DNA of 58,796 nucleotides, the filler included, from Asterionella formosa (Eukaryota): assembly GCA_002256025.1 (NCBI GenBank). It is 8 parts of 8 records of this genome, joined end to end, with 100 filler letters (N's around TTAATTAATTAA, not from the genome) between each part and the next. Parts side by side here need not be neighbours in the genome. Positions count along the whole stretch, not along the records: positions 7,384 to 14,661 come from NKIB01012486.1; 7 more parts are not named here. The stretch is one strand, 5' to 3'. Made by a program: the position numbers and the translations under genes. Each line of letters begins with the position of its first letter. Within the stretch, counting starts at the first letter, position 1. Shown here piece by piece: positions 1-56,133 of the stretch. Below the pieces are notes generated by a model that did not search any database, was not told the DNA's origin, and saw only the letters and a program-made list of their open reading frames with translations.

Positions 1-300
1 ACCAGGTACCCTGGTACATGCCGGTACAGATATACAGTATTCGTCATTTCACGCACACAGTTTGAAATCCTTTTAGTCGTGTATTATAATACCGGGTACC
101 GGTAGATAAGTATTTACCGGTGCATGGTCTACCGGTACATTCTTTGGAAGCTTACAGACGAGGTAAAAATTGGAGTACGCGGTGTCCTGATATTTGATAT
201 CTGAATGAAGGCATTACGCCTCCTCCTCGGCCGACAATATAAAATAGCTTACCCGGTATTCAGAACGAGTTTATGTGCGGTACCTATGAAAGCATAAGCA

Positions 301-1875
301 ATGCAACTGAATGCTGCGTCAACAAATGAAGAGGAGCGCGTCGTGGTCGCAGTGACCATTCCACTGCCTGCGACTCCATTGATCCGAAGTGTCGATCACA
401 GCATTGGGAATCTGCAACGAGTGGTTGTTTTGTTGATCCTTTGCTTGATACTTACGTGGGCGAGAATATTTCACAGAATGAATGTTATCCATGCCATGAA
501 TAACGCAGATCTACTCTTTGATACCGCCAAGCAGTTTCAGGGATCACCAACGGCTAGCTTAGACGGCCCCCTTCGCATCTTGTACATTGTGACTACGTCT
601 ATGGAATACAACACTGGCAGGAAGGCGCGCATATTGGGTACAGATAGACTCATGAAAATTGTTGTTCCTGTGATTCAAGATTCGGTGGAAAGTATGATAG
701 ATAAGGGCTATGACGTAGACGTATTTCTTTTGACAGCCTACAACTTGACGGAGGAGCGAGAGCAAACGATCTTGTCCTTACTACCGGACGGTACTGGTTT
801 GGAAGTTTGGAGCGATGCGATTCCCTATGATTATGATTTGTTGGGAAGAGTTGGTTCAAAGTTTAGTGATCGTCTCTATCCCGTCGGGCGAACCCTCGCA
901 AGGCAACATCGGTTTGTTGTTAGGGATAAATTGTTTCATTACGATTTATTTCTTGCATTTGAAGATGATATGAGAATCACTGGAGATCACATAGAACACC
1001 ATTTGTGGCTTAATTCAGAACTGGATCGACTACGGCAAGAAGCGCCAGATACCTTTCCTTCCAGACAAGATAATTTCTTTGGTCAAATGACCAAGTCACA
1101 ACTAAAACGATTCAAACCTGGTTTCCTAAGGGTCGAAGTTATGTTGGACGAATTCAAATATCCGTTCCAAAAGTTCACAGCACCTGTGGCTGTCGACTTG
1201 GACTTTTCCGACCTTGGATTAAATGCTTCCGAGTCATTATTGGATCCCACCATTTGTTGTCATACCAAACACGTTGGTCTTCCCGGTGTTCCGAGGAAGC
1301 CGAATGACAATAGTATCATGCTTTGGGAGACTACTATCGCTGGCATAACTTTGCGCGAAATGCCACCATCTAGCTCGTTGGGGTGGGTTGGACTTTTGAG
1401 TGGTCCCCTGGAGACAAATCGTGCAGAAGCCTTTGCCAAGTATACTGGAAACACCTCTAGCTTTGTTAGTAGGGATCCGAGATTACTCGCTCAATCTGCT
1501 GGTTGGATTCTAACAAGAAAAGAAATCCTGAACTATCATGTGGAACTTTGCATGGGAGGTTTCCTTCCTCCCTTCAATACGCCAACCTTTGAAAAGGATG
1601 GACTGTACCTAAACAATGTGGAGTACTGGTCTGGAGGAATTCAAATGTGGTGTCCTAAGAATGGGTGCAATATTCGACGGATCATTACTTTGAGTCCATC
1701 CAACTTTTCAAAGCATCTTCTTTATCACACGGCAAACAACAAACAGATTATGATTGAGAAGAATCGTCGTGTCAAGGCTAACACTTTGCTCGGGCAGTTG
1801 AATACCTATCGAAAGGACGCCACAGCCTCCAAGCTCAAGATTCTTAAGGGTAATGTGAAGTCTAGCTTGCGATAG
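301..1875 (+). CDS. Uncharacterised probable type II membrane protein, possibly glycosyltransferase-like
   Basis: 524-aa intact ORF; N-terminal hydrophobic segment (VVVLLILCLILTW); acidic motif YDLFLAFEDDM resembling a GT-A DxD site. Exact start codon and function uncertain. Confidence 0.7.
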   Translation: MQLNAASTNEEERVVVAVTIPLPATPLIRSVDHSIGNLQRVVVLLILCLILTWARIFHRMNVIHAMNNADLLFDTAKQFQGSPTASLDGPLRILYIVTTSMEYNTGRKARILGTDRLMKIVVPVIQDSVESMIDKGYDVDVFLLTAYNLTEEREQTILSLLPDGTGLEVWSDAIPYDYDLLGRVGSKFSDRLYPVGRTLARQHRFVVRDKLFHYDLFLAFEDDMRITGDHIEHHLWLNSELDRLRQEAPDTFPSRQDNFFGQMTKSQLKRFKPGFLRVEVMLDEFKYPFQKFTAPVAVDLDFSDLGLNASESLLDPTICCHTKHVGLPGVPRKPNDNSIMLWETTIAGITLREMPPSSSLGWVGLLSGPLETNRAEAFAKYTGNTSSFVSRDPRLLAQSAGWILTRKEILNYHVELCMGGFLPPFNTPTFEKDGLYLNNVEYWSGGIQMWCPKNGCNIRRIITLSPSNFSKHLLYHTANNKQIMIEKNRRVKANTLLGQLNTYRKDATASKLKILKGNVKSSLR

Positions 1876-2753
1876 TATGTCCATTTTATTGGACTGAGTT
1901 GTATGCCCAATTGTGATGTTTAATAAATTTAGCACAAGCAAAGTAAACTTCATTATATCAGATCATGGTGTTTGCATTTTTGCTCCTGCATTTTCTCAAC
2001 CAACCTCTGACCATCATACAGTATGAGTAGTTTGATAAAATGATCATTGTTTATTCACAGCCATCTGATGGCTGACATCACTGGCTGTACATATGAAGGC
2101 CTGTCTTACGTTCTACAAATCAATGACACTGCCTTGAAACAGTATGACTTGTGCATGGTACTCAACTCCCTCAAAAGCATTGCAGTGATTTGCAATTGAG
2201 TTTAAATTTTCAATCCTATGTACAACTGTACAATTTTCTCCAATTCAATTGCCCTACATAATATGCGCCACCACATGAGGTACTGATCTATGATGTAAGA
2301 TGAAGGATTTAACTTTAGAACAATAATGGCAAATTGCCTTTGATTATGGACCGCAAAAGCGGCTGGAAATAATGGAGAGAAATTAAATAATTGTATGCTT
2401 GTTTTGTTGATGGGAGCAATTAAATATATTATGTACATATATCAACCCTAGAAAGAATATGTTATAATTATCTTTGTGTCAACTTTTATTTGCTTTCATG
2501 CTAATATTTGAGCAGCTGGTCAGCTCTGCAAAACAGCATTAGGCAGTACATATGTATACTCATTGAAATGTACATGTTCAATCGTTTCAATTGATTTATA
2601 CACAAGGAATTGCTCTGATTAGCAATTGAGACTGTATACTCACCTCTATATAAATCATGATCAAAAAAGCATGTTTTCGTACAAGCAGATCCTTGCCCGA
2701 TTGTCAGGATTAAAGTAGGTGCTTCTTGACCTTCGTTGTACTCCATGTTTTGT

Positions 2754-2990
2754 ACCAGGTACCTGTACGAATACTAACAGATTGTACAGGTAGACGACTA
2801 CCTGGTTGGTACCTACCTGGTACATGGTACCAGTTCAGCAGTTACATGTTTGCACCAAGGAGCTGGTACCTAGTACCTAGTACCTGGTACCGTTGCCCCA
2901 TACATCCATTGCTTGCTATCAAGAGTTGTATGCATATTACCAGTACTCTGGTACCAGGGTACCAGGTACCGTCCCGTACCCTGGTACCAT
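2754..2990. repeat. Cluster of TACCAGG/TACCTGG/GGTACC units
   Basis: Dense GGTACC-containing units upstream of the GrpE gene; they produce spurious YQVPGTW-type ORFs. Confidence 0.8.
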
Positions 2991-3286
2991 GAATGCCCTA
3001 AAATTCTCGCACATATGCATACACATGTAAGAATATTCATTGGCTCGGGCGGTGGATGACCATACAGGAATGATGTGTACCGGTACACCACATTAAGACT
3101 GATGGTTACTCCTACGACCATTTCCAATGTTATTTTGTAGCGTGGTGACTTTCCATGCAGCTCTTCGCGAGTCCCAATTTCCACATCATCATGATATATA
3201 GTACAAGGTAACAGTTTCATTTGTGGCTCGTCATAAACACTTGCTATTGTAGCGATACCAAGCAAAACGGAGGAAGAGACATCACC

Positions 3287-4006
3287 ATGACAAGCCGACT
3301 TGTCCAACAGAGCACTAGACATGTTCTTCAACGTATCCGATGTACTTCCGTGTCTGTTTCAAGGAAAGAGGTCCACTTTTGGGCTCCCCTTTCTGCCACC
3401 ACATTTACTTCCCAACAGCGAATGTTCAGCGACAACAAGGGAACAGCAGAAAAAGAGGTCAATGAAGAAACCGCCGCTGAGGAAAATGCTGCTGACGCTG
3501 CTGCGGAAGAAGAAAGTTCCCCCGAGGAAGATTCCCGCGAAATTCAACTGGAACGGCAAGTCATTGAGTTGAAGGACCAGCTCCTTCGTTCCTTGGCGGA
3601 ACAGGAAAATACTCGTCGGATTGCAAAACGAGATGTGGAAGCCGCTCGGAACTTTGCCATCAAGTCATTTGCCAAGTCCTTGTTGGATACGAGTGACAAT
3701 TTATCATTAGCTCTCGACGCGGTCCCCGAAGAGCTCAGAGCTGACAAGGATGGGCATCCTGTGCTGGCAAATCTATATGAAGGAATCAAAATGACGCAAT
3801 TGGGATTAAACAAAGCATTTGAACAGAACGGTTTGGCTGGGTATGGAGAGGTTGGAGACTTGTTCGATCCCTCTCATCATGACGCTCTCTTTCAATACTC
3901 GGATCCCAACTTAGAGAATGGAACTATTGGACAAGTTATGAAGAAAGGATTCTTCCTCAATAAGCGAGTTCTACGCCCTGCCGAAGTCGGGGTCGTGAAG
4001 AAATAG
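3287..4006 (+). CDS. grpE: Mitochondrial GrpE nucleotide-exchange factor (Mge1-like co-chaperone)
   Basis: Motifs LRSLAEQENTRR, FAIKSFAKSLLD, FDPSHHDAL, KKGFFLNKRVLRPAEVGV; Arg/Ser-rich presequence from ATG 3287. Confidence 0.93.
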   Translation: MTSRLVQQSTRHVLQRIRCTSVSVSRKEVHFWAPLSATTFTSQQRMFSDNKGTAEKEVNEETAAEENAADAAAEEESSPEEDSREIQLERQVIELKDQLLRSLAEQENTRRIAKRDVEAARNFAIKSFAKSLLDTSDNLSLALDAVPEELRADKDGHPVLANLYEGIKMTQLGLNKAFEQNGLAGYGEVGDLFDPSHHDALFQYSDPNLENGTIGQVMKKGFFLNKRVLRPAEVGVVKK

Positions 4007-4769
4007 ACTTTTTCTGTGAAAAATGATAATCTAAATCCATAAAAGCAGTATAGGATTACGATTTAGTATAGGATTACGATTTAGTGTCAACTCTGGTTTA
4101 GATGCTAATATTTTAATTAGCCTCCCACCCCTTGCAAGTTGGAAACACTTTTTGTCTGCTCGAAACTTGTCGATATCCATCGACAGCAAGGACTAGCCAG
4201 AACAGTTGGAGATATACAGTCCATTGACATTTTCACTCAGTTTCACTCAGCTATGCACACTTTCAACCTGATTTTAACCATCACAGCCTCGGTTACTCTA
4301 TAGTTGGCCAATTGTAGGCAGTTTTTTCGGTCAACCGATGGAAGTCGATTTTTTATTGTGCTAGAGATTAGGAGCAGCCGTTTAAACCAATTTGTTGCAC
4401 CTCATTCTGCGCAGAGGGAAAATGTTGCTATGCTGCAATATGCGTCTACTTTCTTGCATTCTCGACGGACTTGAAGACAGGCAGGGAGGCAGTTCCCAGT
4501 GGGCTAGTAGCGAAATAATTGTAAGGGAAAAGCATAGAACTAATGCTTTACACACCATTATGAGTATAAATGAGTGTCTAGAACAAAAGTAGGTACTCCA
4601 TCCTTGTCAAAGGAACACAGTCACCTTGAGGCACCCCTTATATTTTGAGCAAATTAGATCTGCATGTCAAAGGTGTCCAGCTTGAATCAATCAATGTTTA
4701 TATTGACACCCAGGAGAAAGAAAGTCCATCTCGAAAACTAGCATCCCCTTTCTGACGTGCCGGTGTGGA

Positions 4770-5182
4770 TTATGCATAGGAGAGGACTTCAATTTCGAAA
4801 ATCAATTCCGAGTTGGGCATGATCCCCCATGCTGGGAAACCACCGGCGCCGTACGCGTAATCAGGCGTGCAGTGGATCGTGGCGATTTCACCGATGCTCA
4901 TCCCAATAACGCTCTCATCCCAACCTACATGTTGAGAAAAAACTGGTTAGTTCGCCCTTTTTCATGGAAATCGCGAGGACTATAATATCAATTCTTACCC
5001 TTGATCACTTGGCCCAGGCCAACCTTGAACTTGAACGGCTCTTGACCTGGATCTTTTGTGCTCCAGAACTTTTCATTCATATTGCGGTTCTTTCCATAGC
5101 CAGTGCAGTGAACAGTGACGCTTTGACCGCGCTTGGGCATGACGCCGTTGCCTGCTTTGATTAGAGTCTTGACGAATCCCAT
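4770..5182 (-). CDS. FKBP12: FKBP12-type peptidyl-prolyl cis-trans isomerase, 2 exons (5182-4999, 4924-4770), 112 aa
   Basis: Splicing a GT-AG intron (4998-4925) gives [13 protein letters not shown]...[58 protein letters not shown]. Confidence 0.93.
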
Positions 5183-5479
5183 GGTGAAGATAAAAAGCAA
5201 ATTATTATTGCATTTGATCACCTACTACCGGTAGTACCGGTACTCAATCCATTTGCAAGTGAAAAGCGTGTCAGGACGGAATAGCACCGGTACCGGTATA
5301 TATCAGCTGGACATATGCCAAAGTGCTTACCGTACTACATGTCTACATTTGGTGACTACAGGTAAAATTTATGCCGGTAAAAACATACCGGTATGTACCG
5401 GTATGGACTTTACTGTGGCGGCTCCAGATTGTATGTAGTCCGGTACATCCGAGGGGCACCAGGAACCAGGGTACAAGTA

Positions 5480-5577
5480 CCAGGCAAGTTGCGGTCATTT
5501 TGCTTAAACTAACATTTTAATCTGGGATAAAGAAAGCTAAATCTTTAGTTTGAGCAAAATTACCGCAACTTGCCTGG
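5480..5577. mobile_element. 98-bp hairpin MITE, TA-flanked, copy 1
   Basis: TA|CCAGGCAAGTTGCGGTCATTTTGCTTAAACTA ... TAGTTTGAGCAAAATTACCGCAACTTGCCTGG|TA; near-identical copy at 6604-6699. Confidence 0.75.
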
Positions 5578-6603
5578 TACCGGTACCGTAGTCCGTCCAT
5601 AATGTCTGTCTGTCTGTGTCAGACACTGATGGTTGCCTCTACCCGTGTTGCTGTTCCTCTCTATTCCAATTTACCTACTTTTACTTTACTATAATCACTC
5701 TTTTAACATACCCCCTTCCATACTACTATTGAGCTTGTCAGGTTAGTTAATTGACTCACATTTGTCCTTGCCATTGTTCGCTAACATTCCCTCTTTCACT
5801 GCATCATCACAGTCAATATATCACTTGATGATAAATAGGAAAGATTGAGTCTTAAAATGATAGGTAGTAGACTCAGGTAGGAAACAGGTAGATGAATAGA
5901 GAGGACAAGAAGATGACAGATTGTAGAGGGATCCAAGGTTGTGTAGAACTTAAGTAACAAATTGTGTGGGAAGGTCAATTAGGGTGGATCTTGTATAGAT
6001 CCAAGGTGGTAGCTAGTAGACAGATCTTGCAGGGATCTAAGATGCTAGATCTTGTAGGGATCCAAGGTGGTAGAGTAGCAAGCTAGTAGCTAGATTATGT
6101 AGGAATCAAGTGCTGGCAAGCAGTAATGAATTTATGGGATTAAAGGTTGAAAGAAAGGAATGAATGTAAATTTGGTTGAAGAACCTTATGTTTTCAATTA
6201 TATGAGCTTAATTCTAGTTGACACAATGAGGAAGGTGAGGAAATGCCGGAAGCAACGACTAATGAATTGCTGGCACCATAGACTGGTGAGTAGTGAATCT
6301 ACAGACTCCTAAGGGAAAGGTAGAGAAATGCCAGAAGCAAGACCAGAGGTGCTGGCAGTAGACTGTTTATGAATGTACACCCTGGTACCATAGCTAGACC
6401 TGTCTGCTCAGCATTGTGCTGTCATTCCAGTACTATGCATAAAACCTGGTACACAGTCTAGTAGCATCACTAAATTCCTGCCGGCAGTATCAGCATGGTA
6501 CAGAACCACCTAATGGATTGTAATAAATACTAGGTACACAGCCTGGTACTGCTAAGATCAATAAATTCCTGCCGGCAGCCAGTATGCAAACCAGTAATAG
6601 CTA

Positions 6604-6699
6604 CCTGCAAGTTGTGGTCATTTTGTTTAAACTAACATTTTAATCTGGGATAAAGATAGCTAAATCTTTAGTTTCAGCAAAATTACCGCAACTTGCTGG
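6604..6699. mobile_element. 96-bp hairpin MITE, TA-flanked, copy 2
   Basis: TA|CCTGCAAGTTGTGGTCATTTTG ... CAAAATTACCGCAACTTGCTGG|TA; core nearly identical to 5484-5573. Confidence 0.75.
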
Positions 6700-7283
6700 T
6701 AGTAAAGTGCTGCTCCGACAGTATGGTGCTGCCGTTGACAGGGCAGAAGTTACATAGTGCTACTGTTGGTAATATACTGGCATTACTCTTAGTAGCTACT
6801 AGTATACAAAATGACCAGGAAGGTAGCTACGGTAAATCAGCGAATTGCGTGCACTATATACAAAAAATTCCACGTAGCGGTTTCAAGCAACCTACTTCAT
6901 TGGAAGTCTGTCCGGCTCACCAATTCCGAAATGATGAACACCTCAAATTATTTCAAATCAATTTATTTACCGGTAGATTACTTGTAACTGTTATAAACTT
7001 TCAAACAGAAAAGCGCTGCCGCCTTTCAACGCAGCATCGCTGACTACCAACTCAACTTGCTGATTGCGGACTTCTTGTTGCTAACTGCTGACTTGACTTG
7101 CTGAAAATTTGAAATATTCGCTGACTGCTGACTTCGTTTGCTGTTTGCTAACTTCAACGTGTTGACGTCAAAGAAGCTACTTTGTACATAGGAAGAGACC
7201 GACTACCATTACTAGTGTACGAATCGTGTCTACTTTTCATATTAGAATAACAATGGAAACGCATCATCTTTTTGTTGTTGGGA

Positions 7284-7383
7284 NNNNNNNNNNNNNNNNN
7301 NNNNNNNNNNNNNNNNNNNNNNNNNNNTTAATTAATTAANNNNNNNNNNNNNNNNNNNNNNNNNNNNNNNNNNNNNNNNNNNN
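7284..7383. other. Artificial contig linker
   Basis: 100 nt of N with central TTAATTAATTAA (stops in all six frames). Confidence 0.97.
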
Positions 7384-8171
7384 GCTGTTTCCTTACTCAT
7401 GACTCTCCTTTCGTCATTGTTAGTGCCATGAAGAAGTTTAGAAATATCATCGACATTTAGAGCCGAGAGGGAATGTAGTCTCCCAATTGGAGATTCTTGG
7501 CGAGTCTCTAGCTCGCAACTAGTAATCTTCTCTTCACAGCAGGGATTCATGATTGATTCTGAGGATTCATGCCTTTCCTTCATGCCTTGAATGTCGTCGT
7601 TGCTTTCAAAATTATTATTCTCTTTCTTGTAATCCTCACCGAGCAAGTCCAAGAGAGCAGTCGTGAATTCGTGGCAGTCTTGTTGACGATAACCGACAAA
7701 AAGATGAGACCGACTGTCGAGAAATGTCTTGAAGGCTTCCGGACGAACTGTTGCCTGTGATTGGAGCTGCTCCATAAGAGTCAGGTATTCTTGCCTTAAC
7801 CCGAGCTTTTCTTCTTTTAGTTCTTCAAGTGCCATTTCGCGCAAATATGCATTAAACTTGTCTAGACTGGCCAACATTTGTAGACCTGAGTTCATATAGC
7901 AAGTGTTTCCCAGATTCCTCAGACCACCATAGCACAGAGAAACAGCGATACCCTCGCGAGTCAGTGTCGCGTCGTGTTCAACATCCTCCATTTCGACATC
8001 ATTATCATCAGATAAGGACGGGACTGAAACTGACAAGTCGTCGATTGACGGCGAGACCAGAGCGGCATCAGCATGCCCTAAATTTGAAATTGCATTTACA
8101 AAGTCGTCATCGTCATCGCAATAGCAATTTAATTCCATCATGTTCAGAGGAGAAAGGATAGCAGTAGACAT
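7384..8171 (-). CDS. Ubiquitin carboxyl-terminal hydrolase (USP, peptidase C19), 3'-truncated by contig end
   Basis: Cys box GLRNLGNTCYMNSGLQML and QQDCHEF motif; ORF runs into the linker. Confidence 0.88.
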
Positions 8172-8499
8172 CTTGGATAACTATTTAGCAATATATGAGA
8201 TTACGTTTTGGTGAGGTGAGGAGCAACGTGGTGCAATCCTTAGGTCGTTGCTCGTTGGAAATTATAACACGAAATTAATCCAGTCTCTTTATCGGCGAAT
8301 TATATGTCTACCACTGAACTGGGTTTACTGTACCTGGTACCAGGTACCAGTTTACCTAATTGTGTGTAAATGTAGTTTTGGTCTTGTATGATGAACAAAA
8401 TGTGAATTTTGTGGACAGGATAGGGCCACGGTGGTCTTTGCATGTCGTAAATGCCCCTAATCCGATCCCTCGGCATGACCGTTGGTGTTATGCTGTCTT

Positions 8500-9042
8500 T
8501 TCGGTACCAGGGGTACCTGGTAGCCTGGTACTTCCTACTAGGTACACCCTGCGCTGGTGCATATGTAGGGAACCTGTACCAGGTAACTTGTGCCGGATTA
8601 CCGGTATCTAGTGCACCACGTCGTACTTGGGACCGTCCAGTATCGAGCTACGTACGAGATACCATACCCTGGTACCAGGGTACCTGGTACCCTGGTACCA
8701 GTGGACGTATCCCATACACACTAAATGCCGGTAGTTTACTGGTACCTGGTAAGTACCAGTTACCGGTAATGATTTTGTTGATGAATCATTTTTTACAACG
8801 AGGACAAGCAAAGATTCGTCTTCTTTTCAGATCGATTTGCTTCGTCAGCCATCCTCGAAGTGATTCCCGATTGTGCGCACTTTTTGTACTAACGGTATGT
8901 AGCAGCAATACTGGTACCAGGTGTGCTCTGACTCGAGCGAGGAACAACACCGGTACCAGGTACCTGGTACAAGGGTACCAGTAGCTGGTACCTGGTACCA
9001 CCAGTATATGGATAGTACTTTGTACCAGGGTACCGGTACCGG
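8500..9042. repeat. Cluster of TACCAGG/TACCTGG/TACCGG units
   Basis: Many GGTACC-containing units between the divergent USP gene and tRNA, densest at 8670-8766 and 8950-9042. Confidence 0.8.
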
Positions 9043-9149
9043 TGTTCGTTCGATCGACAACTGTATAGCTAATTTTTTTAAGGAATGTTATTGACAGGGT
9101 TTAAGAACTTACTTTCACAAACAAGTGGTGACGCATCTGTTGTGTCCTT

Positions 9150-9221
9150 GCGACTGTGGCGCAATGGCAGCGCGTTGCACTCCTAATGCAGAAGTTGCGG
9201 GTTCGACTCCCGCCTGTCGTT
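9150..9221 (+). tRNA. tRNA-Arg(CCT)
   Basis: A box TGGCGCAATGG, anticodon arm TTGCA-CT-CCT-AA-TGCAG, T arm GCGGG-TTCGACT-CCCGC, acceptor GCGACTG/CTGTCGT (one T-T mismatch), T5 run just downstream. Confidence 0.88.
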
Positions 9222-12096
9222 ATACATTTTTAATGAAAATAGATGTTCTACTGCAGATGTTGAGAAAGACAAGTATTGAAATGCTTGATCAGTTTTTTTC
9301 ATCATGATTGCTGTTTTGTAACTTGTTTTGAGATTAGTTCTTATCACCAAAATGTTAACCAGTTCCTTTTATTCCCTTGTTCTTTATGATGATAACGAAG
9401 TAGGATTAGAATAAATGTAGATGGTTTAAAATCAAAGAGTGAAACAATATCAATAAAAGGTTTACTGGTATAATACTTTCATTTTTGGTGCGCCAATAAA
9501 AGTCAGTTGTGTTATTCATGAAGAATTATAAATAAATCATTCTTTTGCGTTTCTTCCTTCGAAGATGTCATCCAAGTATATAACCATATAAAGTGTTAGA
9601 TCATGATCAAATACCTACCGGAATTGATCATTCATTCAAATATCTTCAATAGCGGTGACGTACTGCCTGTATTCTCTGTATCATGTAAGTACCGGTATAC
9701 TTTGAAGGTATGTATAATAGGTACCAAAAATACTTGTCTTACTCCGTACCAGGGATGTGATTAGCTACCGGAAGTACGTTCGAGGTTCTTCCAAGAAGTC
9801 TTGAAAAGTTTATCTTATCATTCATACTTAAAAAAATAGGGTATAGACATAAAGAAATATAAATGAAACTTAATTTTGTTTTCGACATTGATAATATCTC
9901 TCTTCCCTACATGCAGATGTGAGAAGGAGGATTGATTCTCTCCTGTCACCTATCAATCAACCATGAAAGCAGAGGTACCGGTAAGTTATGTGCTCATTTG
10001 CTGCTCATATGTCTATTGGAGCGCAAAGTTTTATGATTGTTTTGCTTCTCATATGTTTATAAAAGAAACCAGGCTTGTTAATGATTCTTTCGTTTCAAGT
10101 TTGTGTATAGAAAAGTGCTTCTGTACAGAAGTCACGACGTCGTCTTGGTGCACATGCGTGTAAAGAATCGCGCTTTTGATCATAAATTATGTGATTCTTT
10201 CGTTGCGCATCTGTGGAGATGGTTTACACATTTCAAAAATTTCGCTAAAATTGTTCTTATCTCCTACAGGAAAATTATACAAGAAGGTTAGAGAATTTGA
10301 GTTTGCTCTCATTCTTAATGGTGGAATTTTGAATGTAACATCAATAATTTCGCTGACTCTTTCATTTCATCTTGAAGAAAAACATGTCAAAGTAAATGAT
10401 ACATGTCAAAGCAAACGATAAAAACAGACGTAACTACCATAACTGGATAGAGGGTATTAAAGAGGATAATTTGCTCATTCTGTTAAAAGATGTACAGTGG
10501 AAAGGATGTGGACCAGAAGCATAAAATGTATATTATTAAATATCAATCCATTTTTGTTTATCATTGATTGAACATGATAATAATTATGTTAGGTCGAAAT
10601 CTGGAATAGCATTTGATAAAAGCACTCCAAACATTAGTGCAAAAGATCAATTGTCTTGATCGAACGATTTCTATCTTTAGATTGTAGATTGACTAATTGA
10701 TGCAATATAAGAAACTGTTTGACATGATGACAATATGTCTAAAATCATGCATGTCTATATGTTTATGATCTAACACGCACGCAAAAAGTTAATGATCAAT
10801 ATCTTTTTATGTATGATCAATAAAAACCGTCATAATGCGATAATTTTGGGGCGTTCGATAATAGAGAAATTTTGGGGCATTCGATAATAGAGCGAAATGT
10901 TAGGCCTACCACTTTTTTCATTCACAGACGTTGCTATTATTTATATGATTATCCATTCCAATGATCTCCTCCTCCTTAACAGCATCTTCAATATTGACCA
11001 TTTCATCAAGAAACGTAAATACCGTAACTCAATGACCTCGTATATTCATTCTTCTTTCTTTCGTTCCTTAGAGTCTTTGAGCAGTTCAACAGCTACTGCA
11101 GTACGATCAACATACTGCACTGCCTCAATTTTCTTGTTCGCAATTCTCCTTGAAAGATATCCAACTCTGCATTTTTGACGTTCTGGATGGAGTTCCTCAC
11201 AGTCCATCGTCTCCCGGATTGCATCCTCGAGTTCTTGTAGGACCTCGTCCAGCACTGTACACCAATGCAAGAAGACCATTGATCCAACTTTCCGAGTTGA
11301 TTTTCAACAATGATGATGGGCATAGCTGCGCCCATTATTCTTTGCCATCAGCCAATGACCTGGCAATCAGGAATGGGCGCGTCGTCAATTCAACATCCAT
11401 TTTGACAATAACTGTAATGATGATGGTGATGGATAAAAATATTTACGAAAAATCAAGGCATTAGCATCGCTTGATACATACATGTACCAATGTTTATATG
11501 TATGGTAATTGGTTTTCGATAAATTTATTTAAATGCTTCATATTTAATTATAAAAACGGAGTTTATGTTCATGTCTATGTAACTCATAATAACGCATTTT
11601 TTTCGAGTAAGCTGACCTTCACGTAGGAAAATGGTATGTAGTCTACATAATCCGTGCTAAAATAAGCTGCTTGGCAATGACGGTTCCGATAATCGAGGAT
11701 GCAACTATTATCGGACAGAGGGAGTACCATGTAGCAGTCAACAAAGCAAGGAGAGGGTGGACGAGTCGCCCTTTATTTGTCCCAGGGACTGGATCAGTGG
11801 TCCCAGATGCTTGCTGCAGATGCTCCTTCTGAGAACTGATACCGGTACTTGTGGTTTCCTTTCCTTTTGCTCTTCTCTGTTTTCAGACATTTCACCTTTC
11901 TTAAGGATTCGCATAAGTAACTGGGCCAATCACGTCGTTTCCCACAAGGGTTGTTGGCACTGCGGGTTTCTTCAGATCTTTGCCATTCCCTTCTGACATT
12001 TCTTGGCCATACCTGCGCTTGATGTATCATTTATTTACTGTTCTCCGAAGTAGCAGGCACCACGTACCTGGTACCTGCTTCCACCAGTCAAGAGTA

Positions 12097-12671
12097 CCAC
12101 CTAAAAACTGAGAGTCATCCTTTAAAACAGGGTAATCACACGTTTTGGGACGAATATTAGAGATACATTGATTCTGTTTCAGACAAACTTGTTTCTTGGC
12201 ATGCATGGAGGGGCAATGTCCATAAATGTAAGTTGAGCTTTCGTGGCCGTTCTTGCGATAAATAGGTCGAAAGGTAGCTGTCGCCAAAATTTGGGTCAAA
12301 TCAGTTTTCCCTACTGAGCCGGCAATACATTTTTGAAACTTGGAGCACATTTCAGCTAATTTAATGTTTTAGTGATTCTTTGTTAATAATTTAATGTCTT
12401 TTGTTTCTATACTTATTGGCTTCGATTGATCATCAATGTCACATGGAGTGATGTTGCTCCGCCCTGTTCACCATGCATAAATACGATCAGTTTGCTTAGT
12501 GTACTATTATAAATCACGGTGGCTGGTGATGATGAACAAACAGGACTCGGTACCTGAGAGAACGAGCTGCAATAACCTTCGTACTTGCTTCAACATTACC
12601 ATCCAATCGGACTGAAATAATTTGAGTCGTAACATGGGATTAAATAAGGATGACTCTCAGTTTTTAGGTGG
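12097..12671. mobile_element. Non-autonomous TIR element (575 bp) with TA target duplication
   Basis: Perfect 26-bp TIRs CCACCTAAAAACTGAGAGTCATCCTT / AAGGATGACTCTCAGTTTTTAGGTGG, TA on both sides. Confidence 0.85.
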
Positions 12672-12702
12672 TACCTGCTACTCGGAGTATCAGGTACCGG
12701 TA

Positions 12703-13970
12703 CCACTTAATAACTGTAAGCCACCGCTATGGCGACTTTGAAGTGTAAGCCACCGCTAAACAGAGTAAACGCACAGTTTGAACTTAGTTTGCAAGATACT
12801 AAGCTGTTCATTGTCACAAACGATTTGTCCAGATTTATATAGCAAGTAAAAAATTATGTACTTGTATTGTTGCATGGTGTACGTTGTTAATTAGGCATTA
12901 TCGCCCAAAGGGTGCGGTCGACGCGAAATTGCGAAAATTGGATATTTTCACGTTTACCAGTACTCTATTGAGCAAGCATCACCTTTTATGTATGTATACA
13001 AGTATGAGAATGTTCCTCTGCCAGGAAACTAGTTTAGTATCCCCAAAAATGTATCTACCGGTAATATGGCAACGACATCATTGCACTTTCGCTCGTGTGC
13101 CATAATAAAGAGAAAAATTCACTTAGGAAAATGTAAATTAGGAATTCCTGGCGCGCCCAAACTAATAGTACAAAATTTAAATGCAAATACAACAATCACG
13201 CATCACAATACGAATCATCATGACCTGGAAAGCATGGCACCTTGACAACAAGGCAAAGCCTTGCCTCGAAAGAAGCTGTCTCCTGAAGAGCTTCACAGCG
13301 TTCAGATTCGCCTTAACAACGTGATTAGGGAGCTAGAATCTAAGAAGGCTAACAATGCTGGAAAATGCCTTATGGTGCTATTTCTGGGACAGTATTAGCT
13401 ACGTAATCAACACATTTTCCCTTGGATATCTTTTAACCACCAAGTGAAGAATGAATTAAAACGAAGTGCTAAACTAGAAGTTAAGTCTATACTACTTCTC
13501 TTTCCCTCATTCAATCATCAACTGCAACCATGTCTACATTGACACCTGACCTTTGTGGGCCTACCAAACCTATTTTCTTGAATGCTGATGGCAGCTTTGC
13601 CTTTTTATTTCCCAGCATCCTCAGTCATTATTCATATGAAGTTGTCAAGGAGGAAGAGGATGACAACAATGAAGGGTTTGAGTGACACTGAGATTCAATT
13701 AACCAAACCACAAAGAACATTGATGCACCCATAGAAGCTAGTACTACTGCCGCTCTCCCTCCTGATGAGTTAAACCTCCATACTGGCTTTCTGCAACAAT
13801 TGTTGCCTTTGGAAAAATTATATCCTCATGGCTTGATACACTGAATCAAAACTGATTACCTGGTACTTAATGGTATAGCAGAGAGCATCGTCTAGCATAC
13901 ACTTGCACATGCATCAAGTTTTAACATAAATATTTTCAGTCTGGAGATGGAGTATTACAGTTTTAAGTGG
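12703..13970. mobile_element. Non-autonomous TIR element (about 1.27 kb) with TA target duplication
   Basis: TA|CCACTTAATAACTGTAA ... TTACAGTTTTAAGTGG|TA; its ends recur at 29844-30044 on another contig. Confidence 0.75.
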
Positions 13971-14079
13971 TACCTGGTACATACTATATAGTAGGAGTAC
14001 CAGGTTACCTCTTCGAGAAAATGAGGCGACCGTATACTATCTTAGTATCAGGTACCGTTAGTACCCCTTTCATTGTATG

Positions 14080-14415
14080 TACCAGTGTACCAGTATGCCG
14101 GGACCAGGGACCAGTACCAGGTACCTACCACGTAGCATACTAGCCATACAGGAACTGGTGTTCCTGGTCCCAGGTGCAGCGAATTCTTCAGAAGGGGATA
14201 CCAGGTACCAGGTACCTGGTACCTGGTACCAGGTACCTGGTACCTGGTACCTGGTACCTGGTACCCGGTACTACCAGGTACCAGGATAACCCCTGTAGTA
14301 AGTAGCTGGACGCACCCTATTAATGTTTTTCTGGTGGTACCGTACCAGGTACCAGGGTACCAGGCACCAGCGGGTAGTAGAGCACGGATGTGTTTTGGTA
14401 CCAGGTACCAGGTGC
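14080..14415. repeat. TACCWGG heptamer array (about 12 adjacent units at 14199-14285) plus scattered units
   Basis: TACCAGG-TACCAGG-TACCTGG-TACCTGG-TACCAGG-TACCTGG... seen directly. Confidence 0.9.
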
Positions 14416-14549
14416 CGGTATGTATTTATTACCTGCATGGAATTGTAAACTGCATGCACGCATGACTGCTACATGTACAATATAAAGAGAATTACCGAAA
14501 ATGCATCTTACGATCACATCTGCAAACAAAACATCGTGCGTTATCCATC

Positions 14550-14657
14550 ATGAAGCTATCTACGGTTGCCGTTGCCCTTGCTCTTGCCGTCTCCGCCAGG
14601 GCCGCTGATGTCCCCAGCTTGACCCCTGAAAACTACGATGAGCTTACTGCTGGGAAG
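14550..14657 (+). CDS. First exon of a secreted thioredoxin/protein disulfide isomerase-like protein (truncated by contig end)
   Basis: MKLSTVAVALALAVSARAADVPSLTPENYDELTAGK followed by GT donor; signal peptide plus LTxxNYDE start typical of PDI thioredoxin domains. Active site not present in the window. Confidence 0.65.
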
Positions 14658-14661
14658 GTAC

Positions 14662-14761
14662 NNNNNNNNNNNNNNNNNNNNNNNNNNNNNNNNNNNNNNN
14701 NNNNNTTAATTAATTAANNNNNNNNNNNNNNNNNNNNNNNNNNNNNNNNNNNNNNNNNNNN
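14662..14761. other. Artificial contig linker
   Basis: 100 nt of N with central TTAATTAATTAA. Confidence 0.97.
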
Positions 14762-15060: not shown

Positions 15061-15389
15061 CCAGGAACATGGGTTTTACAACATGATTTGATTATAGATA
15101 TGTAATTGATATTGGGATATCAATGTCGATAAGTGATAATTGACAAATGACTACGTCGTGATACTTTCCGTCGTCGTTCTTGCGATTACAAGGTTGTTGA
15201 TGAGGTTTTAATCCTATCGGATAATCCTACTACCTTGGATAACCATGGACGAGGTCCTTATTCTATTTATTCAAGTATATGCCAATGGTCCAGTTACTTT
15301 TCAACAAACTATGCATACTACGGACTGAATTAATATCCATTACATCAAACCTTTTCAAAGGTAAAAGGTTTTCCCTTGGTGTGGGAGAG

Positions 15390-15586
15390 TGAGCGATCTT
15401 GCGCATCAATACAGATGTATATAGGGTTAGTGTTATATCATGTATGTATAAGAACTCAATAATGAGAGAACTCGACTAACCCTCATTGTATACTTTGGTG
15501 TCGACTTGGAGAACGAGTTACACACAAGGATTAACAAATAAGCTCATATATTCAACAAATACTACTACTTCTAGTTAGATACTTCA
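15390..15586 (+). repeat. LTR-like repeat (TG...CA, about 197 bp), probable 3' LTR
   Basis: Near-identical to 39878-40082; starts TGAG, ends TTCA, preceded by purine run GGGAGAG, downstream of the integrase remnant. Confidence 0.7.
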
Positions 15587-16214
15587 CCAGGTACCTTAGT
15601 ACCGGTACTACCGGTACAGCTATTAGCACTTGATATCATGCATGTACTGTCAATCTGAATCCTACGATGGTACAAAATTGAACGCTGTTTCTACATGTTT
15701 TTGGGGAGAAAAGTCTCCCCAAAAAGCCGCTGCTGACGGGGCCGCAGAAAATATACGTGTTAAAAGCTAGAGGGGAATAAATGTCAGCGCGGAAAAAAGG
15801 GGAGAATTTCTCCCCAAAAATGTAGGAGTATCTCCTACATTCTCCCCATTTTTCCACGCTTCTGGAGCTTCCACGCCGTCTTAACAACCCTAGCGATATA
15901 TTCTCCAAACTAGGGTTAAGCCGCCTACTGTGTAGATTGAAGTACATCATAGAAATATTTTGGAAAAAACAGACCTCGCGATGTGTAACTGCGGCGTCGC
16001 AATATTTTGCATTATAAAAAATTGATGCTGCCATGACTCATTGCATCGCAGTTGCATTACCGGTATTTTATTTTCATTCATGAATCCCAACACTTTCACG
16101 AGGAGCAGATCAAAAATATTTCACCTCACGAATCCACCTGCCAAGTCATGTTTTTTCCTGAATCTCATGTCAGTACATATCTTGACACTCCAATCATATT
16201 ACACCTCATGAATC

Positions 16215-16440: not shown

Positions 16441-18036
16441 ATGATTTTTAGACACCTTTTCATCAAAGCAGCAGCATTGGCTTTGCTGTTCTCGGTTCCA
16501 ACTACAGGACAGGAAGTCGAGGAAATCACTCATAAGAACCTCCGCAGTACCAGAACTGATGCTACTCTTCCCGTTGATGAGGAGGGCTGGGAGAACAATT
16601 CCCGGACGCTTCAGACAGCAGGGTCGGACAGTCGCCTAGTTGCATATGTGCCAAACTGGAAGCCATGCCCAACCGCTGCGCAAACAGCCAAGTATACTCA
16701 TATAAACATTGCATTTGCCGTTACATACACTTGGAACCCAAATGGTCCAGTCACGTGCAGCAACACTTGCACAATCCAACCTATCGCTGTTTGTAACAAT
16801 GCCCCTAACCCAGGCCTTGTTTCAGCATGGAAGGCCGCTGGGAAGAAGGTCATTATATCTTTTGGTGGGGCAACCATGGGAGGCCACTGGGATCCACCCC
16901 CCAATGGATGCTGGGAACAATGCTTTGGCAAGGAGGATTCGGTTGTCAGCCAGCTCAACAATATTGTGAGGAATCAAGGTTTCGATGGAGTGGACATCGA
17001 TTATGAATATTATTATGAGACGGCAGCACAGCAGAACTTTCTCACGAAGGTCACAACTGGCCTCCGTTCTAGTCTTCCTGCCGGAAGTATTGTTTCACAT
17101 GCGCCAATTGATGGAGACCTTGTGCCAGGTAAAGGCTATTATGAAGCTCTCAAGAGAGTTTCATCCTCGGTCAGTTTCCTCAATGTTCAGTATTACAATG
17201 GTATCACAAGGCCTATCATGAATGGACTCAGTGGAACTGGAAATGGAGCATCGCAATCTGCTATTTCGCACTTTAGAACCGTGGTGGACAACTTGTTTGG
17301 TGGCAATCCGACAAAGGTAGTGTTTGGGTTTTGCCTGAATGACTGTGCAAGCCTTAACAGTAATTCAAATGGAAACCAAGCAGCAGCAGTAATGAGCAGT
17401 TTGAAGAGTGCCTATCCCTGCAATGGTGGAGCTATGTTTTGGGAGTCTGCCAGTGTAAACGAACAAAACACTGCCTGGTCAACTCCAGTTAGTGTGGTAA
17501 CGAGCTCATCTACTGGTTGCTCGATCAATCAACCACCAATCAATCAACCACCAATCAATCAACCACCAATCAATCAACCACCCCTTGTCCCCAACTGGAG
17601 CACCTGTACTAAAGGAGTGTCAACTTGTGCTAATAATTGGGTTTGCTGTGTTGCACCTGCTGATGTTTCCACTAGCAAGGCCACTTGTCGACCAGACTCT
17701 AGTAGCCAAAACTGTGCTACTTCTACACCTAATACTCCTGGTACATGTGGCAATGCGCAGAGGGGCAATGGAAAGTGCCCAAATCCCAGCATGTGTTGCA
17801 GCCCATATGGTTGGTGTGGCACTGGTTCTGCCTATTGTGTTCCTACTTCTACGCCTAATACTCCTGGTACATGTGGCAATGCTCAGAGGGGCAATGGAAA
17901 ATGCCCAAATCCCAGTTTGTGTTGCAGCCAATATGGTTGGTGTGGCACTGGTTCTGCCTATTGTGGGAGACGACGCTCCCTTCTTGGAGGAAACCACAAC
18001 TCCACAATTGTGGTTGATGCCACTGAAGCAAACTAA
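16441..18036 (+). CDS. Secreted GH18 chitinase with Pro-rich linker, Cys-rich module and two hevein-like (CBM18) domains
   Basis: Signal peptide; ISFGG and catalytic FDGVDIDYE (DxxDxDxE); QYYN; (INQPP)4 linker; two CCSxYGWCGTGSAYC repeats with 126-bp period. Confidence 0.93.
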   Translation: MIFRHLFIKAAALALLFSVPTTGQEVEEITHKNLRSTRTDATLPVDEEGWENNSRTLQTAGSDSRLVAYVPNWKPCPTAAQTAKYTHINIAFAVTYTWNPNGPVTCSNTCTIQPIAVCNNAPNPGLVSAWKAAGKKVIISFGGATMGGHWDPPPNGCWEQCFGKEDSVVSQLNNIVRNQGFDGVDIDYEYYYETAAQQNFLTKVTTGLRSSLPAGSIVSHAPIDGDLVPGKGYYEALKRVSSSVSFLNVQYYNGITRPIMNGLSGTGNGASQSAISHFRTVVDNLFGGNPTKVVFGFCLNDCASLNSNSNGNQAAAVMSSLKSAYPCNGGAMFWESASVNEQNTAWSTPVSVVTSSSTGCSINQPPINQPPINQPPINQPPLVPNWSTCTKGVSTCANNWVCCVAPADVSTSKATCRPDSSSQNCATSTPNTPGTCGNAQRGNGKCPNPSMCCSPYGWCGTGSAYCVPTSTPNTPGTCGNAQRGNGKCPNPSLCCSQYGWCGTGSAYCGRRRSLLGGNHNSTIVVDATEAN

Positions 18037-21661: not shown

Positions 21662-21864
21662 TGGTCTTGAGTTTCCTGTTGCATCAATCCTTTTACCTAC
21701 TAGCTACATAGCTGTATATCTTATTATAGAAATTTCATTTAGACTAAAAACGTCGCATACTAGATCTACGGTGGCTACCCAATCGAGTCCAAGCGTGCAC
21801 CTAGCCATAAAAAATTCAACAATTAGTTCACAATATAAGAAACATTGACTGGAGAACCGGAACT

Positions 21865-22035
21865 GGGCGCGCTCTGATAATAAAAAATTATTATATCATG
21901 TGTATTATAACACAAATTTTTTACAGTTATAAATAACAGTGCATTATATAAAAAGATGTTTAGACATGAATGACTATAAAGAATTTCCCGGAATATTTCA
22001 AGACTTGCTTGCTCATACTCAAAATGGCTTGCTCT
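21865..22035 (+). mobile_element. Left end of PIF/Harbinger element (truncated by contig end)
   Basis: ACT|GGGCGCGCTCTGATAATAAAAAATTATTATATCATGTG, same terminus as 46212. Confidence 0.8.
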
Positions 22036-22135
22036 NNNNNNNNNNNNNNNNNNNNNNNNNNNNNNNNNNNNNNNNNNNNTTAATTAATTAANNNNNNNNN
22101 NNNNNNNNNNNNNNNNNNNNNNNNNNNNNNNNNNN
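22036..22135. other. Artificial contig linker
   Basis: 100 nt of N with central TTAATTAATTAA. Confidence 0.97.
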
Positions 22136-23590
22136 TAGCATCTAAAGAAATTTATTCGAAACCAATTTAATCTACATATATTGATAGCATACATGTACAT
22201 ATCGCCAGATGCTGTTTTACATTGGCCGGCCACTCAAATATTGCGGGAAACAGAATGCAAGATGTCACTATGATAATTATAACATGAATAGAGCACCTAC
22301 TGGGTGGTTGCTCACCACAGCTACAATGGACAGTTCTCAAGTTTTACATTTGCTTCTCTAGCAATTGTGGACTCGTCACTGAGTATGACAAACAGTTGCT
22401 GTCAGTTGCTAGTACAAGTCCCAAATCTTCATGTCTCAAGTCATTGCGGGAGAATATATGCAGCTGCTTGTCAACAAATAGAGGAGGCATATACTACCTC
22501 AAACTTGCACCATGGCCCCCATCCATCATAATTAAATTTTTCCTATAAGACTTCATTCTGTTACCTCCATTAATTTCACAATGGTCAGGCCGTTAAGGTA
22601 TCAGCAAGGTACAGAGGAATGACAATCCAGTTAATATATGAAATATAATTCCACAGAGGTGCTGTCTAACATATTTTACTCAAATTTCACAAGGAAAGTC
22701 TCTTGTGTTGTATTCATTTGTTTTTGTTCAGTAATACCGGTACTCGGTAATAATTACCCTTATTAGCAGAGAAATATTACAACGTACCCCAGGTAAGCAA
22801 AGTCATTCAATAGTGAACAAGCACAGTATGGTGGAAATGTGTATGACCAATACATATGTATGTTGAACGACCATGCATGGATTTATACCGGGCAGCCAAC
22901 AGCTACCTTGCTGGTACGTGGCACCAGACAGCAGTAAAACCAACAGGGTATGAAATTAATTATATACCGCACAATAGTAGAATACTATTTGGTAAATAGT
23001 TTCTCTGTGTCCGGCGGCATATGGTATCGTCGTGATTGTGTCTAGTGTCAACAGGTGTTTCATATTTTGCTTGCTACTTAAAATATTTTCCTTTACTATA
23101 CGAAGCTTCTATTAAACAATATTATATACCACATCGGTAAATTAATGTTTTAATTTTGATCTAGCCAGGTAATAGCTGTAGTCTACCGTACTTTTCGAGG
23201 GACCATGCTGCCTAATGCGAGACAATGTACCGGTAGTACCAGGTACCGGTAATTAAAATGTGCTTCACATGATCCGCCAAAAAAGCAAAATGTAGTGTGT
23301 TCGCTCAAGCAAAGCACAGCAAGGCACGGCAGAACAAGTATGTCTTGAAAAATTCACATCTCAAGATTTCGTTTTGAGACTTTATTGTAGTCTATTGATT
23401 ATCGACAGTTGTTGTTGGAAACGCCACCATTCCAATCCACGATTTGATTCCGACGAAGGAACAGTTAATAACAAGCCTACAACACAGTCTGGATTGTTCG
23501 ACGAAGAACCAAAGCTATTGAAACGCCCAGAAAGATCTTTCCGAACGCATTCAAGTCGTGCGCAGCACCTATCGTCATTACAAACGAACC

Positions 23591-29391: not shown

Positions 29392-29491
29392 NNNNNNNNN
29401 NNNNNNNNNNNNNNNNNNNNNNNNNNNNNNNNNNNTTAATTAATTAANNNNNNNNNNNNNNNNNNNNNNNNNNNNNNNNNNNNNNNNNNNN
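29392..29491. other. Artificial contig linker
   Basis: 100 nt of N with central TTAATTAATTAA. Confidence 0.97.
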
Positions 29492-29843
29492 ACGACACCA
29501 ATCACCGTGGTGACCAGCAGCCGCCATTCCCTCTCCATGCACCTCCTATTGCTGTGGTTGTTGTTACTGCACCTCCTCCTGTTGCTATTCCCTCTCCTTC
29601 TACAACTGCTACTGCCGAGGATCCACCATTCCGTGATGAAGTTTGAGACTCCGCCAGCAAGTAATTGGATGCAAAGAAGCTCGAGATTTATATAATGCAT
29701 CAGAAGAATTCTCCGACGATGATGCTGCCCTGCAAAAGTGTAAAACGTAAAGTAATAAGAAAATAATTTTTGTAGTATTAACGGAGTAAAAATAAACACG
29801 GTTTGGGGGTAAAATATATACATGTACAGATAGAAAAATATGC

Positions 29844-30044
29844 ACTGTAAGCCACCGCTATGCAATAATCTTAGTGACTTTGGAAAAATTATTTCTTCAT
29901 CGCTAGATACACTGAATCAAAACTGATTCCTTAATAGTATAGCAGAGAGCATTGTCTAACATAAGCTTTGTACTTGCGTCAAGTTTTGATCGTTGAATTA
30001 CATAAATATTTTTAGTCGAAAGATAGAGTACAGTTTTTAAGTGG
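29844..30044. mobile_element. Internally deleted relative of the 12703-13970 TIR element
   Basis: ACTGTAAGCCACCGCTATG matches 12713-12731; 29880-30044 aligns with 13810-13970 and ends CAGTTTTTAAGTGG|TA. Confidence 0.7.
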
Positions 30045-30262
30045 TACCCAAATATCAGCATTTGGGGTTATCTCGTTTTCAGTGATGATGGACAATCGTC
30101 AACCTCAACCAGCCATCAACTTATATATTTTTTCTGCGTGATGGTGTAATGAAAATTTCGTGGTGCATTTGTTGATGCTTGACTTAGAGATCTCTTGTAC
30201 ATACTTTATTTATTATTGTCTATCAAAGAAAGGTCTATCTACTGTCATCTCATAATAGTACC

Positions 30263-31801: not shown

Positions 31802-31900
31802 ATGATGCTCGATAAAGTAATAAGGTAGCTATAGAACTTGATGCTATGTATCTGTTGTGGTCTTCTAGAAGATGGGGGGGGTGTGGGGGANNNNNNNNNN

Positions 31901-31916
31901 CCCTCCCTTCCCCTCG

Positions 31917-31960
<44 letters not shown>
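31901..31960. repeat. Poly-C run beside a 10-N scaffold gap
   Basis: About 44 consecutive C next to Ns; probably a sequencing or assembly artefact. Confidence 0.7.
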
Positions 31961-31985
31961 TTCCATTCATCAGTTTTAGAATCGA

Positions 31986-36243: not shown

Positions 36244-36438
36244 CATCTAAGCCGCGTATTACGTGAAGTGACCATCACGTAAATAAGCCTAGTTGATTTT
36301 GAATGGATCACATGAATTAGTTGAATACATCAAAATGCTTACTTGAATATATCTATATATTATCTGAATACATCACGTTAATTGTTCGATCAGTGTATCA
36401 TGCATGCATTCCTGATCATCACTATATTACGTGATCAC

Positions 36439-36509
36439 CTTCACATAATTATTTGAAATACTTCACATAATTATTTGAAATACTTCACATAATTATTTGA
36501 AATACTTCA
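36439..36509. repeat. 22-bp tandem repeat CTTCACATAATTATTTGAAATA x3
   Basis: Perfect units inside an AT-rich tract rich in TCACRTAAT motifs. Confidence 0.88.
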
Positions 36510-55937: not shown

Positions 55938-56133
55938 CTGGTATGGAGTATATAACAGGTACTCTGATACTTCGGAGTACTTGAGGAAGTCTCGAGTACC
56001 AGTACAGCTGGTACGGCGGAATATGTACCTGATAGCTGGTACGGAGTATGTAACAGGTACTCTGATACTTCGGAGTACCGGTACTTGAGGAAGTCTCGAG
56101 TATCGGTACAGCTGGTACGGCGGAATATGTACC
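55938..56133. repeat. 98-bp tandem duplication, GTAC-rich
   Basis: CTGGTAYGGAGTATRTAACAGGTACTCTGATACTTCGGAGTAC... at 55938 and 56036; copy 2 carries an extra CCGGTA. Confidence 0.85.

Follow-up and report, generated by a model that had tools for sequence, protein, structure and literature searches.

How does a run of short units come to lie head to tail in non-coding DNA: do transposons write it, one visit at a time, or does replication slippage grow it? The question is raised by an array of about 12 TA-CC(W)GG units that can be read directly at positions 14199-14285 of an Asterionella formosa sequence (the focal array), and which, in a preliminary description, was suggested to be possibly stacked excision footprints of transposons. 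We examined it within the window, that is, the whole 58,796-nt stretch of DNA that was analysed. The window consists of eight pieces (7283, 7278, 7274, 7256, 7256, 7250, 7251 and 7248 nt) parted by 100-nt spacers (N44, TTAATTAATTAA, N44) at 7284-7383, 14662-14761, 22036-22135, 29392-29491, 36748-36847, 44098-44197 and 51449-51548, so distances across spacers are meaningless and positions are informative within a piece only. The layout resembles contigs of similar size linked by a six-frame stop linker. One piece, 7384-14661, holds the focal array, two elements with terminal inverted repeats (TIRs; elements B and C) and a loose unit cluster at 8.3-9.0 kb (Table 1).

The DNA is that of a photosynthetic eukaryote. 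The genes of the window include a tocopherol cyclase of eukaryotic type, whose nearest clusters are plant-like, and a GH18 chitinase that bears chitin-binding repeats; copia-like fragments are present too. The chitinase ORF carries a 126-bp tandem duplication (95%) at 17717-17965 that doubles its chitin-binding (hevein-like) module. The copia-like retroelement fragments (RVT_2, integrase SH3-like, gag and zinc knuckle) lie at 32449-37869 and 51493-55754. A run of 44 Cs at 31917-31960 stands 16 nt past an N10 gap at 31891-31900, and the two (31891-31960) may mark an assembly join.

Table 1. Positions of units, unit clusters and TIR elements in the window.
Feature	Position	Strand	Description
Loose unit cluster	2753..2985	.	
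MITE-A copy 1	5480..5577	.	TA-CCAGGCAAGTTGCGG...CCGCAACTTGCCTGG-TA; right TA doubles as the left TA of a TACCGGTA unit
MITE-A copy 2	6604..6699	.	TA-CCTGCAAGTTG...CAACTTGCTGG-TA; 95% identity to copy 1
Element B	12097..12671	.	TIR element, TA-CCACCTAAAAACTGAGAGTCATCC...-TA; 31 bp upstream of element C
Element C	12703..13970	.	1268-bp non-autonomous TIR element, TA-CCACTTAA...TTAAGTGG-TA
TACCTGGTA inside element C	13857..13865	.	7 nt missing from paralog 29883-29963
Single and degenerate unit tract	13971..14198	.	between element C and the focal array
Focal array	14199..14285	.	central letters A A T T A T T T T C, TA-C-TA, A A
Downstream units	14286..14420	.	CCAGG then CCAGGG at 14343-14359; 14399-14407
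Heterogeneous stack	23228..23251	.	TA-CCGG-TA-G-TA-CCAGG-TA-CCGG-TA
TACCGGTA in second copy of a ~100-bp tandem duplication	56076..56083	.	first copy has a plain TA at 55978-55979

In TA phase, the focal array opens with ten consecutive 5-letter cores (CCAGG, CCAGG, CCTGG, CCTGG, CCAGG, CCTGG, CCTGG, CCTGG, CCTGG and CCCGG), although CCGG is the commonest single unit. These are followed by a TA-C-TA step, a CCAGG and a final CCAGG that runs into A-TA without a clean TA. Tandem Repeats Finder (TRF) reports a period of 7 with 10.4 copies, 93% matches and a score of 118 over 14199-14271; over this span the array does consist of head-to-tail copies of one unit, as expected of a slippage microsatellite. 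Across the first ten units all 60 of 60 non-central positions (six per unit) are invariant, while the central letter takes three states, with A and T mixed. Because GGTACC is palindromic, CCAGG and CCTGG are two orientations of one unit. The mixing of CCAGG and CCTGG and their relation as two orientations had been noted in the preliminary description, along with the count of about 12 adjacent units, and the sequence and TRF agree with it. The first seven units also form a perfect 51-nt palindrome, but this symmetry comes down to three mirrored pairs with many possible centres and is not significant. The tract between element C and the array contains TACCTGGTA at 13971 and TACCAGGTA at 14115 together with decayed GGGACCAGG-like copies, and the next ATG past the array is at ~14550.

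We next consider how common such units are and what bounds them. TACCWGGTA occurs 33 times in the window against 0.30 expected, and TACCGGTA 31 times against 0.26, each an excess of ~100-fold (0 of 100 shuffles reached 33 or 31, respectively); GGTACC is the commonest 6-mer of the window (n = 72). The 64 perfect units are divided among pieces 1-8 as 14, 33, 3, 9, 0, 2, 0 and 3. Their description as occurring throughout the window is only partly right: 47 of the 64 lie within 1-14661, and the pieces at 29492-36747 and 44198-51448 contain none. TA was found on both sides of CCGG in 31 of 102 occurrences and of CCWGG in 33 of 126 (26-30%), versus 0-2% for control palindromes (GGCC, 1/86; CGCG, 1/49; CTAG, 1/105; GATC, 1/201; GCWGC, 0/107; CATG, 7/337). 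Single units with unrelated flanks make up 47 of the 57 clusters in the window, and none of the 64 units (41 clusters) falls in a Pfam-supported ORF, though such ORFs cover 27% of the window.

The repertoire of cores is narrow. Counting every TA-X-TA word with at least four occurrences in the window, we found the enriched X to be CCGG (31), CCTGG (19), CCAGG (14), CTGG (8), CCAG (5), CCAGGG (5) and CCCTGG (4), all of which can be derived by joining CCAGG and CCTGG pieces. CCA...TGG ends joined simply as 3+3 would give TA-CCATGG-TA, of which the window has 0 copies, and cores such as CCACGG, specific to the CCAC-type ends found in elements B and C, total one; the repertoire thus needs CCAGG-type ends, plus either a 5-nt overlap or trimming. 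We know of no Tc1/mariner enzyme with a 5-nt stagger. Lengths and orientations are mixed in the loose cluster at 8331-9043, where ~15 units are separated by unique sequence and where CCCTGG-CCAGGG-CCTGG-CCCTGG stand side by side at 8665-8697. A single C or G between TAs (TA-S-TA) was also seen between full units at 5223-5242, 15597-15616, 23228-23251, 28710-27 and 14262-14280. Such TA-C-TA and TA-G-TA steps occur inside six unit chains, with window totals of 65 and 66, and could represent one-letter scars.

Contigs of four public runs from four studies (freshwater and algal metagenomes) were aligned to 7384-14661. The array is covered in contigs of all four runs, many of which continue into unrelated flanks, and the array motif is not an assembly artefact. 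Summed contig depth, which is not a copy number, was 1906, 49090, 524508 and 1157 in the array bin, versus ~5, 12-32, 650-1500 and 3-5 in nearby single-copy bins of the same runs. Among the places listed, 10-28 contigs per place leave into flanks with a consensus agreement of ~0.4. The depth of the array bin and the divergent flanks together indicate that many different loci carry such arrays. The short-read assemblies of the four runs break inside the focal array.

Present-day elements sit on the TAs that bound units. As had been described, the window contains three TIR element types with ends of the form TA-CC(A/T)...TGG-TA; all are TA-flanked, start with CCA or CCT and end with TGG. Duplicated TA flanks all four element copies in the window, and a third MITE-A copy, adjoining an array in metagenome locus L022, has the left TA only. 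The TIRs measure 30 nt in MITE-A, 29 nt in element B and ~20 nt, with mismatches, in element C, and the outermost 3-4 letters differ among the three MITE-A copies (CCAG, CCT/CCA and CCTT/CCA). Element C occupies the middle TA of TACCGG-TA-CCTGGTA, and with MITE-A copy 1 it brings the elements that abut a perfect unit to two of four, versus 3.7% of all TAs (P = 0.008). Element C has high summed contig depth, no ORF of at least 101 aa, and a deletion derivative at 29831-30050. Insertion of MITE-A into the centre of a CCWGG unit was considered and dropped, the implied duplications being inconsistent among the three copies. In a scan of genome contigs the end of element C had 0 matches; that of MITE-A had four bacterial matches of 23 nt only, with no units nearby, which we attribute to chance.

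Two other repeats of the window may be recorded here. A further TA-flanked TIR family of ~1.35 kb lies at 46208-47553, with 54-nt inverted ends starting (G/C)TGGGCGCGCTCTGAT and ORFs without a Pfam match; partial copies were found at 21862-22035, 49554-49614 and 50449-50880. A ~210-bp repeat is present at 15377-15593, at 39865-40083 (93% identity) and in metagenome locus L095 (185-332), and C(A/T)GGTA directly follows the right end in two of these three copies.

Paralogous copies provide filled and empty versions of the same site. In self-BLAST alignments of the window, only two gaps of 6-7 nt separate paralogs, and both are units (CCGGTA and a CCTGG unit), as the preliminary description would predict for unit-sized indels between paralogous repeats. 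The tandem duplication reads GAG-TA-CCGG-TA-CTTGAGG at 56076 and GAG-TA-CTTGAGG at 55975, a difference of the 6 nt CCGGTA at a G-TA-C site whose direction is unpolarised by an outgroup. The unit at 13857 is missing from its paralog and also from another genomic copy, which run X1 shows as a loose end. Copies that lack the unit have TC in place of TA, so one substitution is needed besides the insertion. Among isolated units (n = 35), G precedes the left TA in 21 and C follows the right TA in 22, and 15 of 35 have both, versus 8.4% of all TAs in GTAC (P = 2e-5 and 6e-6). Some of this G-TA...TA-C preference is owed to older, degenerate units alongside, which already amounts to stacking. These observations support the units being discrete TA-bounded insertions, not slippage products.

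Among the contigs of the four runs, none of the 12 listed of 32 insertion/deletion rows was a 6-7 nt unit. In two other runs the short arrays at 8952-9043 show no change; a diverged contig of run X4 over 8885-9406 had 3 other letters and 0 gaps, so the short arrays there are unchanged. Neither the window nor the joints listed from these contigs, which break at arrays, offered a site at which element, scar and empty TA are alleles. Contig joints at 9917/10385 and 10195/10330 were set aside: their sides are short (20-39 nt), and the intergenic tract in which they lie is disordered.

For the units, as for the short mixed clusters, a footprint origin is the best-supported reading. Specifically, we consider it somewhat probable that TA-CCGG-TA and TA-CC(W)GG-TA units are scars of TA-specific cut-and-paste transposition that pile into clusters and short arrays. 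A footprint would consist of TA, terminal letters and TA at a formerly plain TA, which is the structure displayed by the restricted repertoire and by the two filled/empty pairs; a transposase as the maker of these scars, GTAC as its favoured target and excision as their origin are what we infer. In such a scheme, an element with CCAGG...CCTGG termini, as in MITE-A, would insert at a TA and duplicate it, and on excision some of its terminal letters would stay behind, enclosed by two TAs. Where the two end remnants meet, their middle letter would be unpaired and would give rise to the central A or T, like in the TACWGTA scar of Sleeping Beauty. A scar in a G-TA-C site would yield two such sites, so that new insertions would tend to land beside old scars, building clusters and short arrays. 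The earlier proposal that the arrays are excision footprints thus gains from the discrete TA insertions, the matching repertoire, the paralog pairs and the element positions, but no DNA transposase was found among the 27 window ORFs scanned. Its further suggestion, that a GTAC target is regenerated, fits the G-TA...TA-C context of isolated units, from which a preference of the insertion for GTAC may be deduced. More tentatively, a family's scar might double its own G-TA-C target, so that cycles feed on scars and write GGTACC(W) arrays; we regard this as possible, if doubtful.

We also scanned metagenomes for the array pattern and found at least 123 stretches, corresponding to 121 loci from many organisms with GC of 0.30-0.73; viral contigs gave 0 matches. 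Among the loci listed, L022 and L095 alone have transposon families in common with the window, and both carry similar arrays. An all-against-all BLAST of the metagenome loci gave too few homologous pairs for an indel census. One group of eukaryote-like loci (L040/L041, L047/L048, L052, L023 and L046; GC ~0.43-0.46) has 11-24 TACCWGGTA per locus and almost no TACCGGTA; genes on these TACCWGGTA-rich contigs (L040, L047, L052, L023) include MutS, endonuclease V, PP2C and an ion channel. In another group (L068, L051, L012, L038 and L025) there are 7-16 TACCGGTA units, and TACCWGGTA is absent from four and present once in L025. CCWGG-only and CCGG-only contigs, which belong to other organisms, hint at lineage-specific versions of such scar formation. 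In locus L051, a unit-rich contig of another organism, non-coding stretches interrupt the ORF of a pogo-like DDE_1 transposase (902-1780), and the nine TACCGGTA units all lie outside its coding parts. Long mixed TAC/TAG triplet tracts (TA-S-TA, both orientations of one unit) were also observed in the eukaryote-like loci of the first group.

The array could alternatively be a slippage microsatellite, in which GGTACC(W) supplied by transposon ends or targets was grown by replication slippage or unequal exchange. Mutation, or strand switching within a palindromic repeat, would then account for the A/T mix, and single units would represent either arrays in decay or pieces of element ends. The focal array has the clean period of 7 that slippage would give, and it numbers 10 units against at most 4 in any other cluster of the window. 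It is also length-homogeneous (P ~7e-5 if the other units were the pool for random stacking). Its W order, with identical neighbours in 5 of 8 pairs and no excess, needs few block duplications: given a stacked seed, duplication of one ATT block and expansion of a T run would produce it, with at least two central-letter changes. Yet slippage offers no first unit, although 47 of 57 clusters are singles with unrelated flanks, and because it cannot make one, a separate insertional process exists. Two single units are moreover derived insertions in paralogs (with the direction at 56076 unpolarised), core positions in the focal array are invariant while the centre has three states, and loose clusters with unique sequence between units, as at 8331-9043, are unlike a slippage pattern. 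Outside the focal array, adjacent pairs are identical in 0 of 12 cases, versus ~2.5 expected from unit frequencies, and of the same length in 4 of 12 (for example, CCCTGG-CCAGGG-CCTGG-CCCTGG at 8665 and CCGG-G-CCAGG-CCGG at 23228). Neighbours there are thus no more alike than chance: units in small clusters are mutually independent, and the small clusters are stacked events rather than slippage.

The central letters were also compared across 119 metagenome loci among those listed, plus the window (L041 and L048 were omitted as duplicates of L040 and L047). In contigs with at least four unit clusters, a threshold chosen after the data were seen, 23 of 45 pairs of neighbours have the same W letter (6 of the 23 from one repeat family; L072, L097); where arrays are isolated in their contigs, 37 of 45 do (Fisher P = 0.003). 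The order of A and T therefore shows no neighbour excess in the focal array or in unit-rich contigs, but it is mostly uniform in isolated-array contigs, which indicates that slippage arrays of the motif exist elsewhere. As a general account of the units we find slippage unlikely. The earlier view that the arrays may be written by transposition and not by slippage gains support from the small clusters, but the focal array stands out in its size and in the uniform length of its units, and for these reasons block slippage may have added to a stacked seed. For the focal array, we put repeated visits by one family and block slippage on a stacked seed at about even odds.

The units might also be targets instead of scars, in which case GGTACC-type palindromes, made for example by templated break-repair insertion, would attract TA-specific elements and the CC...GG likeness would be a separate matter. 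Elements do adjoin units, units favour a GTAC context, the window ORFs yielded no transposase, and a possible template, TGGTACCTGGTAC, lies at 13968, ~110 bp from the 13857 insertion. However, the inserted letters are constant and equal to element termini, not copied from the local flank, and the 56076 insertion is without a nearby CCGG template except for other units. As this account also names no process that would create the palindromes, we hold it to be quite improbable. Hairpin-type scars (hAT-like palindromes copied from flanks) were likewise rejected, the inserted letters being constant while the flanks vary. A still less probable option is a cis-regulatory motif under selection, with factor-bound GGTACC-core sites kept in promoter arrays. 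Some algal and plant factors bind GTAC-core sites, all units are non-coding, and the focal array lies ~265 bp upstream of the ATG that opens a signal-peptide-like ORF. Against this, derived insertions of units are found within a non-autonomous transposon and in one of the two copies of a tandem duplication, units abut transposon ends, and their length and orientation vary within clusters; absence from coding sequence is equally expected of 6-7 nt insertions. Linker or adaptor concatemers, or misassembly, might be suspected since GGTACC is a common cloning site and the window is made of eight joined pieces, but coverage of the array in the contigs of four runs from four studies, and similar arrays beside the same MITE family in the independent metagenome contigs L022 and L095, make such an artefact hardly conceivable.

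Returning to the footprint origin, excision scars are usually taken as rare, heterogeneous by-products, but here they may outnumber their source elements. If they do, transposons would shape non-coding DNA beyond their own copies, through dispersed palindromes, new targets and tandem arrays. There would be an added mechanism for the birth of short tandem repeats, scars per kilobase would be a countable record of past transposition, and the genome would be a natural system for studying how end remnants are joined after excision. If scars indeed double their own target, the scar would end up as the most frequent 6-mer in non-coding DNA, microsatellite-like DNA would have a slippage-free route, and the A/T order of each array would record how the central letter was resolved at each visit. 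On the practical side, the arrays break short-read assemblies of this freshwater alga.

In the open-access literature searched we found no report of scars accumulating into arrays or of a scar as a dominant genome word; the motif itself returned primer-like matches only, and searches on footprint-derived microsatellites and diatom footprints gave no report describing scar arrays. Hyper-abundant dispersed short palindromes do have a precedent in HIP1 of cyanobacteria, an 8-letter palindrome that is vastly over-represented and dispersed. HIP1 is common in coding DNA too and is without TA-bounded insertion structure, whereas the units described here are TA-bounded and lie outside supported ORFs. 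Short tandem repeats have also been linked to small DNA transposons, as in the MITE-associated microsatellites covered by the available text of PMC8449440. There, as far as that text shows, the repeats travel with the element, whereas here the unit would be the element's leftover.

Footprints, and re-insertion at one TA, are already known. Mariner and Stowaway scars are described as keeping element letters plus the duplicated target (PMC4561436, in the portion available), and Stowaway footprints as TA plus 1-4 TIR letters (PMC1925063, likewise in part). In rice, where excisions of DNA transposons were inferred by genome comparison, the accessible part of PMC4423477 gives 8 of 94 as "perfect" and most as having deletions or filler DNA; the putative scars described here are, by contrast, uniform and accumulating. 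The consensus footprints of the Tc1-like element Sleeping Beauty, TACAGTA and TACTGTA, resemble ours in having a duplicated TA around an end remnant with a central A or T, both forms occurring, as far as the excerpted text of PMC4378557 goes. The core there is CWG rather than CCWGG or CCGG, and the present putative scars are natural, ~100-fold over chance and arranged in head-to-tail arrays. In intron 4 of the Triticeae beta-amylase gene, a full element has gone into the same TA again, next to an older footprint, and the available part of that account (PMC1925063) follows one locus through a plant tribe, where it shows five distinct footprints but no array. In A. formosa, by contrast, units are spread across non-coding DNA, draw on a narrow repertoire and reach stacks of 10-12 units.
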